Shown here: piece by piece, positions 7,358 to 9,680 of the stretch
Numbering within the stretch: the first letter of the stretch is position 1
How the letters are laid out: every line of letters starts with the position of its first letter
Origin: a virus
Taxonomy: Duplodnaviria > Heunggongvirae > Uroviricota > Caudoviricetes
Reading direction: 5' to 3' (one strand)
Length of the DNA stretch: 13,846 nt
Virus record (IMG/VR): IMGVR_UViG_2713896897_000012
Coordinates: 1-13,846 of that record
Notes under the pieces: model-generated
The model's database searches: none
What the model was told of the DNA's origin: nothing
The model's input: only the letters and a program-made list of their open reading frames with translations
Program-made: the position numbers and the translations under genes

Positions 7358-7887
7358 GGAAAAAGCATTCCGTGTAGCATTGACTCACCAGCGTCTTTCT
7401 GTCCGTCAGACGGGGTGCCGCCCTGTTGTTGCCCGCGCCCGTTCGTCGGCCCGTCGCGTGGGCTGGACGGGGAGCCGGACGCGCCAGCCGCGAATTTTGT
7501 TTCTGCGATTTTTAGCTCAACGAGTGCCAGTTCCATTGGTATCGCGTCGTTGATATCCGTCGTTTCCTCGTGCGGAATACCAGAAATCATCATGTTCTGA
7601 TACGTTCCGGTTTTCGTCTGCACAGATAATAAATCGCCGCGCAGCCATATCTGGCGTATCTGCTGGTACACGTCCCGATAAATTCCACTCGGGAGAATAA
7701 TAGATATATTGATTTCAACGGGTTGAATAACCCTGTGATCGACAACGCTCGCCCCAGTTTCAATCGGGTGCTGCATGGCTTTGGCCTCTTCTTTGACAGA
7801 GGCTTTAATCGGTCTGCCGTCAGGGAAAACCTGTCTGAATGACGAGTCGAGGACGGCGACGTCATCAGTGATTGTTAGTGCTCCCAT
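7354..7887 (-). CDS. Tail protein of unknown function with a low-complexity Gly/Gln/Pro/Ser-rich C-terminal tail
   Basis: 177-aa ORF whose ATG overlaps the tape-measure stop by 1 nt. The C-terminal ~45 aa (AAGASGSPSSPRDGPTNGRGQQQGGTPSDGQKDAGE..) are encoded by very GC-rich DNA around 7380-7520. Confidence 0.6.
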   Translation of the reverse strand: MGALTITDDVAVLDSSFRQVFPDGRPIKASVKEEAKAMQHPIETGASVVDHRVIQPVEINISIILPSGIYRDVYQQIRQIWLRGDLLSVQTKTGTYQNMMISGIPHEETTDINDAIPMELALVELKIAETKFAAGASGSPSSPRDGPTNGRGQQQGGTPSDGQKDAGESMLHGMLFP

Positions 7888-9680
7888 TATCCCCAGATCC
7901 CGTCGTCGAATTCGTTAACTGCCTGGTTGAAATGTCCGTTCAATCCGTCACCAATCCCCGCAGCAATACCCTCCGCGTCGGTTGCCTGTGTGCTGATCTG
8001 GATACTTTCGACCGTAAATTGATTGTTTTTTGTGATCTGTTGTGGCTGATTATTGACAGTATTTGACGTCTGGCTGGCAATCGGCGACGAACTCGCCACG
8101 GCAATTTCGCTCTGCGCTTTTCGCTGGAGTTGTTTAATGTCGTCACTCCCGGCAATGCCAAAACCCGCCGTCGCCGCAGACTGTGCGGCTTCTTTGCTGC
8201 CCACTACCGGTTCTGTCTCGGTGGATTTTTTTGAGCCAGTAGATTTTTTTTCGCCTTTTTTCGCCTTTTCATCACCATCATTTCCCGCGTCCACCTCGCC
8301 TGACTCTGGCGCGTCCTCTTCATCCCCGCCGATCCCCAGCAGGGATTTAACGCTGTCGGGTAAAATACTGGTGAGTTTGTTCCACGCTTTCATGATGTAG
8401 CCGACGACGGTATCCCAGATCGCGATAACCTGTTGTTTCATCGACTGGAAACCAGCAACAAATTGCTGCGTCAGTTTTTCAATACCGAAGAATTTTTCAA
8501 ACCACGTCCACAGATCTGACAGGCTTTTCATCATGTTATCGATGGCCTGCCCCGGATTTGTGAAACAATCCCAAATCAGTTTTGCAACGATGACGCACAG
8601 GTCCCAGATGATTTTGAACGCTGCGCCAACGCCCTTGAGTGCCTCGGCGAGCACCGGATACTCTTTGGAGAGTTCACCGATCATTGACGCGTTGCCGTTC
8701 AGGTAGTTGTTGAAATCGTCGAGAATCAGCACGAATGCCGCAATTGCCGCAGCAATAAGTAAAATCGGCCAGGTCGCTAATAGAGTGGCCTTTGCTGCGG
8801 CGTACATTGCAGGGGTGTAATACATTGCGATAGCTGCGCCGCCGACAATAAAAAATTGTTTTACAGCGTCTTTGTGTTGTGTCAGGAACTGGACCGTATT
8901 GCTGACAATTTTCAGGAAGTCGGTCAGCATTGGCATAATGCTGACCCCAGCCTGAGTAGCCAGGCTGTTAAACATGGATTTCGTGCCGTCCAGTTCCGCT
9001 TTGAATTTTTGCGCAATTTCGGCGTCCTGTTTTGTTACGACACCGAACGCCTTTTGTGTCTTGATCATGTCCTCGATTGCAACACGACCTTTGAGAATTA
9101 GATCGACCGTTCGGTTATCAGTAACGCCCAGTTCTTTAATACGGAATATCGCCTGCTCACGGGATAATGTAGAGACAGAATCAGCCAGGTCCAGCATTCC
9201 CTGAGCTGCGTTTTTTGTAGAGCCGTCGGAATTTTTCAGCGCGATGCCGAGTTCCTGAAATGATTTTGCGGCGCCTGATTTTGCGTCCGAAGATGCCTCG
9301 CCCATTTTTTCAGCCAGGTCAGTGAGCGAATCGCGCATTCCTTGCGCATCGCCGCCTGCGCGTTCCGCCGCTTTTCCCCACGCGTCCAGATCTTCAACGG
9401 GCATATTGAGTGATTGCGCGGACCGGGCCAGCGCGTCGATTTCCTCGGCTTTCTCTATCGTACCGCTGATGATGCCACCCAGCGACATGAAGGCCGCCAT
9501 TGAGCCGAGCGCAACAGTTGCCAGCCCGCTGAACGAACTGGTTATTCCGTCTGTTGTGATGCCGATTTTATCGAGTGTTTTATCAAGCGTTTCCGCAGAC
9601 CTGTTCGCCTCATCCGTGCCTTTCTTTACATCAGAGGCGTCCGACTCAAACAGGATCATGAATGTTTCAAGGACCGACAT
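7887..9680 (-). CDS. Tail tape measure protein
   Basis: 597-aa ORF immediately downstream of the chaperone/frameshift gene. It has an alanine-rich, probably helical N-terminal region, a long hydrophobic segment (FFIVGGAAIAMYYTPAMYAAAKATLLATWPILLIAAAIAAFVLIL) and a charged low-complexity linker, all typical of tape measure proteins. GGAGGG lies 6 nt upstream of the ATG at 9678-9680. Confidence 0.85.
   Translation of the reverse strand: MSVLETFMILFESDASDVKKGTDEANRSAETLDKTLDKIGITTDGITSSFSGLATVALGSMAAFMSLGGIISGTIEKAEEIDALARSAQSLNMPVEDLDAWGKAAERAGGDAQGMRDSLTDLAEKMGEASSDAKSGAAKSFQELGIALKNSDGSTKNAAQGMLDLADSVSTLSREQAIFRIKELGVTDNRTVDLILKGRVAIEDMIKTQKAFGVVTKQDAEIAQKFKAELDGTKSMFNSLATQAGVSIMPMLTDFLKIVSNTVQFLTQHKDAVKQFFIVGGAAIAMYYTPAMYAAAKATLLATWPILLIAAAIAAFVLILDDFNNYLNGNASMIGELSKEYPVLAEALKGVGAAFKIIWDLCVIVAKLIWDCFTNPGQAIDNMMKSLSDLWTWFEKFFGIEKLTQQFVAGFQSMKQQVIAIWDTVVGYIMKAWNKLTSILPDSVKSLLGIGGDEEDAPESGEVDAGNDGDEKAKKGEKKSTGSKKSTETEPVVGSKEAAQSAATAGFGIAGSDDIKQLQRKAQSEIAVASSSPIASQTSNTVNNQPQQITKNNQFTVESIQISTQATDAEGIAAGIGDGLNGHFNQAVNEFDDGIWG
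8244..8269 (-). repeat. Short tandem repeat and homopolymer cluster inside the tape measure gene
   Basis: Plus strand reads T8-CGCC-T6-CGCC-T4 (unit TTTTTTCGCC, about 2.4 copies), with a further T7 at 8226-8232. On the coding strand these are A8/A7/A6 runs encoding the Lys/Glu-rich segment EKAKKGEKKSTGSKK. Confidence 0.5.

Follow-up and report, generated by a model that had tools for sequence, protein, structure and literature searches.

The stretch of DNA analysed here, called the window below, is 13,846 nt long and was located at BBVG01000009.1:197075-210920 (GCA_001514595.1) by way of its wedge gene, which was mapped onto the NCBI record. All of its large ORFs lay on the minus strand and formed one tail module, and every tail feature described below is on this strand. 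The module ran in the order neck/terminator, sheath, tube, chaperone, tape measure protein (TMP), tube initiator, plug, hub, spike, sheath initiator, and wedge, and the DUF2612 wedge was followed by two putative fibre genes. This tail gene order was common to the prophage of E. coli STEC384 and six related cultured phages. The tail parts were found with Pfam models built on the structures of E217 and Pam3. The neck gene was recognized by Pfam E217_gp28, and the tail terminator (gateway), which caps the tube at the TMP end, was assigned at 12273..12812 by Pfam E217_gp29 and Phage_tail_terminator_9 and also matched the NCBIfam phage neck terminator (1.6e-10). The contractile sheath protein (10729..12270, 513 aa) matched Pfam DUF3383 (3.6e-102) and, among PDB chains, Pa193 gp32 and E217 gp31 (E about 1e-98); the tail tube protein (10276..10719, 147 aa) matched Pfam E217_Gp32 (9e-59) and the Pa193 gp33 tube in the PDB (8e-36). 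Because sheath and tube matched solved Pa193/E217 chains, the tail is contractile, as the first-pass annotation had assumed.

On the other side of the TMP gene, a Dit-like tube initiator was found at 7354..7887 (Pfam Dit_like, 3.8e-16), with its start codon overlapping the TMP stop and in the same position as Pam3 gp17 (PMC9942802). The baseplate core, defined by Pfam matches, occupied 5228..7357 and was composed of the plug (7049..7357, Pam3_gp18), the hub (6232..7056, E217_GP41, 4e-83), the spike (5580..6239, spike N-terminal domain), and the sheath initiator (5228..5578, Sheath_initiator). The baseplate wedge genes (3366..5241) comprised a Baseplate_J wedge (4045..5241, Pfam) and a DUF2612/Phage_Wedge1 wedge, which a 1-nt deletion near 3797 broke into two parts, 3680..4048 and 3366..3689. 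All the parts of a simple tail of the Pam3/XM1/Pbunavirus type were present, with the small wedge gene frameshifted.

The TMP gene itself was one ORF at 7887..9680, with 597 codons before the stop. As read directly from the sequence, the ATG at 9680 was the earliest start codon past the upstream stop, and a ribosome-binding site, GGAGGG (9684..9689), lay 4 nt before it. This ORF matched ten PHROG families with a tape-measure annotation, the best being 34923 (9e-48) and 8125 (7e-46), and about 220 homologues of the protein were found at E <= 1e-10. Based on the length of the ORF, these homologues, and the PHROG matches, the ORF is not a product of chance. Some of its PHROG matches carried the labels "lytic tail protein" or "tail fiber protein/lysozyme". 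In tblastn searches the protein was 26-38% identical to annotated TMPs of small myophages, namely Pseudomonas KLEP17-4, Leptolyngbya Lbo-JY16, Bordetella IFTN1-8, Yersinia P744, and Shewanella 1/41, in each of which the homologue comes after the sheath, tube, and chaperone genes. Moreover, a profile of 51 members of the TMP family gave a weak match (7.8e-6) to Pa193 gp41, a structurally identified TMP, and the STEC384 prophage had a gene of 1794 nt at the equivalent position. The gene lay after the sheath, tube, and chaperone genes and before the baseplate hub genes. The earlier proposal that 7887-9680 encodes a 597-aa tape measure protein was therefore borne out, since the ORF, the ribosome-binding site, the gene order, and the TMP family matches all agreed. 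No curated TMP model of Pfam or NCBIfam reached its cut-off with this protein, and neither collection assigned a TMP at permissive E-values; for this reason its orthologue is named "hypothetical protein" in RefSeq. Naming such genes of E. coli, Salmonella, and Superficieibacter prophages as TMPs fills a small annotation gap; the gene is an unannotated addition to a known kind of TMP and does not challenge the current understanding.

The chaperone gene was placed between tube and TMP on the basis of its ORF and position, and its short product G had 147 aa (9833..10276). A part predicted to be read by -1 frameshifting (9723..9965) began with the slippery heptamer T_TTT_TTC (9965..9959) in X_XXY_YYZ register, and a hairpin followed 4 nt downstream (dG -21.9 kcal/mol, z -2.6). 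From there the -1 frame was open for 78 codons to a TAA at 9725..9723, which gave a predicted GT product of 184 aa. The position of the heptamer, its frame, and the 184-aa product were identical in the prophages of STEC384 and Superficieibacter electus, so that the putative G/GT-like site upstream of the TMP gene was conserved in three prophages, and the chaperone of Shewanella phage 1/41 is annotated as a joined CDS. In 2004, Xu, Hendrix and Duda reportedly described a frameshifted chaperone upstream as a hallmark of TMP genes.

The protein was predicted to be extended and predominantly helical, with hydrophobic segments. AF2 run on the family alignment placed helices in 419 of the 597 residues (about 70%), at a mean pLDDT of only 52. 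The sole part modelled with confidence was a conserved helical core at aa 75-225 (9006..9458, pLDDT 74-87), which also held most of the invariant residues. In a Kyte-Doolittle scan with a 19-residue window, the main hydrophobic segment was aa 294-325 (8706..8801, AAAKATLLATWPILLIAAAIAAFVLILDDFNN, maximum 2.52), and weaker ones were seen at aa 53-71 (9468..9524) and aa 347-370 (8571..8642). Toward the C terminus there was a low-complexity, hypervariable linker of 64 aa, aa 448-511 (8148..8339), rich in G, E, A, K, and S and predicted to be disordered, without secondary structure and with a pLDDT of about 27-34. Together with aa 532-568, this linker made up about 100 residues that AF2 predicted to be non-helical. 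A conserved helix followed at aa 569-594 (7899..7976, AF2), which is presumed to anchor the protein to the baseplate hub and spike; in the family alignment of this C-terminal region, D568 and G571 were invariant and L580 and G594 nearly so.

The genomic surroundings are those of a prophage. The left side of the window adjoined pabB-yoaH-yoaC, a flank with 84.6% identity to its E. coli counterpart, so that the host is another enterobacterium, related to E. coli but distinct from it; a scan of genome contigs returned Superficieibacter electus as the sole relative. In the STEC384 element, which was 90% identical, genes for terminase, portal, and capsid lay next to the same tail module. We also considered a tailocin or another contractile injection system and rejected it, since the STEC384 counterpart carries these head genes; the element is therefore a prophage. 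Taking the locus as a whole, we consider it highly probable that the 597-aa ORF is the TMP of a temperate myophage, integrated in an enterobacterial chromosome, whose simple contractile tail is of the Pam3/XM1/Pbunavirus type and would have 22-23 rings.

The tail length was estimated from four myophages whose tail structures are solved. These were XM1 (TMP of 479 aa, 18 rings x 35 Å, sheath 630 Å, whole tail ~900 Å; PMC10457771), Pam3 (588 aa, 22 rings x 37.2 Å, 840 Å; PMC9942802), T4 (gp29 of 64.4 kDa, 23 rings x 40.6 Å, sheath 925 Å; PMC3004832), and Pa193 (858 aa, ~1300 Å; PMC11456595). In the text on Pa193, 36.2 and 27.4 are given as twist and rise (PMC11456595); we infer that the rise is 36.2 Å, the sole value that reproduces the stated pitch of 476.6 Å. 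The calibrators had 25.7-26.7 residues per ring (T4, Pam3, and XM1) and 1.32-1.57 Å per residue, and by these ratios 597 residues correspond to a length of about 79-94 nm in 22-23 rings, with a leeway of about +/-8 nm that follows from the span of Å per residue. With the 35-37 Å rise of this sheath type, the sheath would be about 80-85 nm long; as an overall figure, 80-90 nm of sheathed tube is predicted. The previous estimate of roughly 90 nm was arithmetically right (597 x 0.15 nm = 89.6 nm) and agreed with the calibrators, in that XM1 and Pam3 gave 22 rings, T4 gave 23 rings, and Pa193 gave 1.5 Å per residue. Considering that about 100 residues of the TMP were predicted to be non-helical, the value of 0.15 nm per residue is an empirical average and not a physical derivation. 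By analogy with relatives and structural analogues, TMP length would set tail length in this lineage as well. The closest cultured phage had a sheath only 43% identical, and a megablast search of the TMP gene against 50,697 phage records gave no match.

Whole-tail measurements include the neck and baseplate, which in XM1 extend about 27 nm beyond the sheath. Here the neck and baseplate together would lengthen the tail by 10-25 nm, and the distance from head vertex to baseplate tip would be roughly 95-110 nm; a negative-stain tail length in this range would still fit the estimate. For this reason the threshold of about 100 nm, far beyond which the first-pass annotation would have abandoned its prediction, was too tight: XM1 has a sheath of 63 nm but a tail of ~90 nm. 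Tails measured in relatives fit the estimate: those of Bordetella IFTN phages as a group measure 75-109 nm (PMC10269795), the TMP of 537 aa being that of IFTN8, and Obolenskvirus relatives have tails of 93 nm (PMC10888812). The description of the tail as short held against tails of P2, Mu, or PB1 size (the sheath of Mu is built of 30 layers, PMC11915804; the tail of phiCD508 measures 225 nm, PMC11948020) and failed against T4, whose 64.4 kDa TMP and 92.5 nm sheath are of equal size. Nor was the tape measure short within its own family. Among the 120 best homologues listed, the query included, TMP lengths ranged from 433 to 622 aa with a median and mode of 542 aa, and only 4 of these 120 proteins, the window TMP itself among them, had at least 597 aa. 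Natural variants include TMPs of 551/552 and 586 aa, with 551 and 586 aa occurring in Salmonella prophages, whereas the STEC384 or STEC379 prophage combines a TMP of 597 aa with an intact wedge gene. The predicted tail is thus in the T4 size class and unremarkable, a routine use of a well-established rule, and with the size of the T4 tail and a simple-myophage type that is already known, it holds no surprise.

Where the additional residues lie bears on whether all of them count toward the ruler. Nearly all of the TMP length differences among close relatives fell in aa 448-511, where the linker had 64 aa in the window TMP and 54, 49, 47, 18-19, or 6-8 aa in relatives. Segments aa 75-225 (151 aa in 22/22 relatives), 226-270, and 569-597 had identical lengths in all relatives tabulated; aa 1-74, 271-325, 512-531, and 532-568 varied by a few residues, chiefly in distant relatives; and aa 326-447 had 122-129 aa in relatives and 72 aa in the shortest forms. 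Judged from these alignments, the extra length of the window TMP within its family is the 64-aa linker, predicted to be disordered. Tandem repeats were considered as its source and rejected: only two short repeats, both trivial, were present in the gene, and the linker is accounted for by neither of them. One reading of this pattern is that linker length does not count, so that the ~535-545 residues of constant length, shared with the 542-aa majority of the family, specify about 20-21 rings and about 73-78 nm, as in relatives without the linker. It draws on the near confinement of length variation to a region without predicted structure and on the hypervariability of that region, whose flanks are more than 90% identical. 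However, the ratio of residues to rings holds for whole TMPs that include non-helical parts (T4, Pam3, and XM1), and, residue for residue, an extended disordered chain spans a greater distance than a helix does. Moreover, in the STEC384 orthologue, which is 84% identical to the window TMP overall, the linker has diverged almost completely in sequence and yet is exactly 64 aa long, as in the window, which hints that its length is under selection. We therefore regard a shorter, linker-independent tail as unlikely. Somewhat less doubtful, and put forward only tentatively, is the idea that linker length may be tuned by selection, so that tail rings are gained or lost in increments of ~26 residues while the folded and docking parts stay untouched. 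If true, the family would offer a clean natural example of a spacer module that, whatever its sequence, sets tail length in a contractile phage. These prophages, with length variation restricted to the linker, could conveniently serve as a natural test of the ruler rule for contractile tails.

The ORF might also be some other internal tail protein, of ejection or lytic function, with tail length set otherwise. The failure of Pfam and NCBIfam to assign a TMP, the "hypothetical protein" name in RefSeq, and the lytic or lysozyme labels among its PHROG matches all agree with such a role. Nevertheless, its best PHROG matches and its annotated phage homologues are TMPs, no enzymatic domain was detected in the protein, a chaperone with a predicted frameshift lies upstream, and no other ORF of the tail module has the size, position, or helical character of a TMP, so we give this reading very little credence. 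Far more serious is the case that the TMP is genuine and the prophage is defective in the source strain, so that induction yields no tailed particle. The 1-nt deletion near 3797 divided the DUF2612/Phage_Wedge1 gene, an intact ORF of 227 aa in the STEC384 and S. electus prophages, into ORFs of 122 and 107 aa. The truncated 122-aa product was encoded identically in GCA_001514595.1, ERR162681, and ERR13303001, and because the three datasets agree the deletion is not an assembly error; in Pam3 and XM1 the wedge protein is a core component of the baseplate. In addition, two assemblies broke inside the prophage within 33 nt of each other: the right end of the window (13846) was the end of the contig in the NCBI draft, and the independent Logan assembly (ERR162681) ended 33 nt beyond. 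On the other hand, this Logan contig ended in a poly-G run and the break may be a sequencing artefact, the remaining tail ORFs had the same lengths as in STEC384, and the wedge fragments might complement each other or a ribosomal slip might restore the frame. We put a defective prophage at slightly under an even chance. The induced particle to which the previous prediction was tied may accordingly not exist for the source strain, in which the wedge gene is split and the head module lies past the contig end; as a consequence of the deletion, induction may fail to give tailed particles.

Homology to relatives with solved structures suggests how such a tail would be assembled. A single gene would supply both the G and GT chaperones via the -1 frameshift, and these would hold the hydrophobic TMP soluble, while the conserved C-terminal helix of the TMP would dock onto the hub and spike. 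Starting from the Dit-like initiator, tube subunits would then polymerise around the extended, mostly helical TMP until the terminator caps the tube upon reaching the TMP N-terminus, after which the sheath would assemble. After contraction, the hydrophobic segments of the TMP would probably insert in the inner membrane and form a conduit for DNA; a hydrophobic stretch of T4 gp29 has likewise been proposed to form a membrane channel (PMC11948020).

Several known systems resemble the tail module of the window. The mass of T4 gp29 (64.4 kDa) essentially equals that of the window TMP, and the two are likened by size, whereas the T4 baseplate is far more complex. T4 is not known to have a frameshifted chaperone of the G/GT type. 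In Pa193 and E217 (PDB 9B42, 9B45, 8FVG, and 8ENV; PMC11456595), the sheath, tube, hub, collar, and gateway are clear homologues of those in the window. However, the Pa193 TMP has 858 aa, a putative transglycosylase domain, and a tail of ~130 nm, compared with 597 aa and no detected enzymatic domain in the window TMP, and Pbunavirus phages differ from the window prophage in having more baseplate parts (such as ripcord proteins), a genome of about 66 kb, and a lytic life cycle. Vibrio phage XM1 (TMP gp10) and its relatives, the Bordetella avium IFTN phages, have a simple baseplate as in the window and genomes of about 40 kb. The Bordetella IFTN TMPs are detectable homologues of the window TMP (26-27% identity) and belong to temperate phages whose tails measure 75-109 nm (PMC10269795). 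The TMPs of XM1 and IFTN phages are shorter (479-537 aa) than that of the window and their rings correspondingly fewer (18 in XM1); the 26.6 residues per ring of XM1 give 22 rings for the window TMP. Pam3 is a lytic cyanophage, unlike the enterobacterial prophage of the window, and its sheath has two domains, whereas the window has the larger Pbunavirus type. Its TMP (588 aa) has about the same length as the window TMP (597 aa), the two being likened by length and gene order, and both phages share the order TMP, Dit-like initiator, gp18-type plug, hub, spike, sheath initiator, Baseplate_J wedge, and small wedge. The minimal contractile tail of Pam3 (PMC9942802), with 22 rings and 840 Å, is close to that predicted for the window.

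Within the tape measure gene (window 7887..9680), which encodes a 597-aa protein on the minus strand, residues 448-511 (window 8148..8339) form a linker that is hypervariable and of low complexity, with G, E, A, K and S as its abundant residues. We found that almost all of the length variation in the tape measure family was carried by this linker. It measured 64 aa both in the window and in the 90%-identical prophage of E. coli strain STEC384, even though the two linker sequences had diverged nearly completely. In the same gene, 32 of 32 nt at window 9370..9401 were identical to a spacer of type I-E CRISPR arrays, and among complete E. 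coli genomes no fewer than 20 carried arrays with this match. The adjacent PAM (window 9402..9404) was CAT on the plus strand, that is, 5'-ATG on the protospacer strand, and ATG is a type I-E PAM proficient for interference. Lineages of E. coli therefore retain an immune memory of the phage group to which the window belongs, even though its own host is not E. coli.

The tail assembly chaperone gene (window 9723..10276) lies upstream of the tape measure gene, and a previously unannotated programmed -1 frameshift was predicted in it. The slippery heptamer T_TTT_TTC (window 9959..9965) is followed by a downstream hairpin, both elements being kept in three prophages, and the predicted products were the short form G (147 aa) and the frameshifted form GT (184 aa). 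Between the stop of GT and the start of the tape measure protein, a terminator-like hairpin was observed on the minus strand (window 9700..9719), consisting of CGGGCCGTCATTGCGGCCCG followed by CTTCTTTTTT. Its T-run extends to about position 9690 and runs into the ribosome-binding site of the tape measure gene. The STEC384 prophage has a comparable GC hairpin, and that of the Superficieibacter electus prophage is weaker. The hairpin in the window might attenuate transcription into the tape measure and baseplate genes, or might structure the mRNA.

The DUF2612/Phage_Wedge1 baseplate wedge gene (window 3366..4048) was broken into ORFs of 122 and 107 aa by a 1-nt deletion near position 3797, where the window reads ACACCAAA-CCAAAT versus ACACCAAACCCCAAT in STEC384. 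In relatives this gene is a single ORF of 227 aa, and an identical truncated protein was found in three datasets. The deletion is probably an inactivating mutation of the prophage. A second CRISPR match, of 39 nt at 97.4% identity, falls within the wedge gene (window 3881..3919); the matching array is annotated in NZ_LR778150.1, from an E. coli strain isolated from water.

The right end of the window (position 13846) is the terminus of NCBI contig BBVG01000009.1. The Logan assembly of run ERR162681 stops 33 nt farther on (L015:1-33), in about 30 G's, and both breaks fall inside a DUF4054-like head-tail gene; they could stem from a repeat or an insertion, or be an artefact of low coverage. Beyond the left side of the window, the fibre end of the prophage directly adjoins pabB-yoaH-yoaC (L002:14056-15993, in the sequence reaching into the host flank). 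This flank shared only 84.6% identity with E. coli. The STEC384 prophage is instead neighboured by uspF/ompN, and therefore the integration sites of the two prophages differ.
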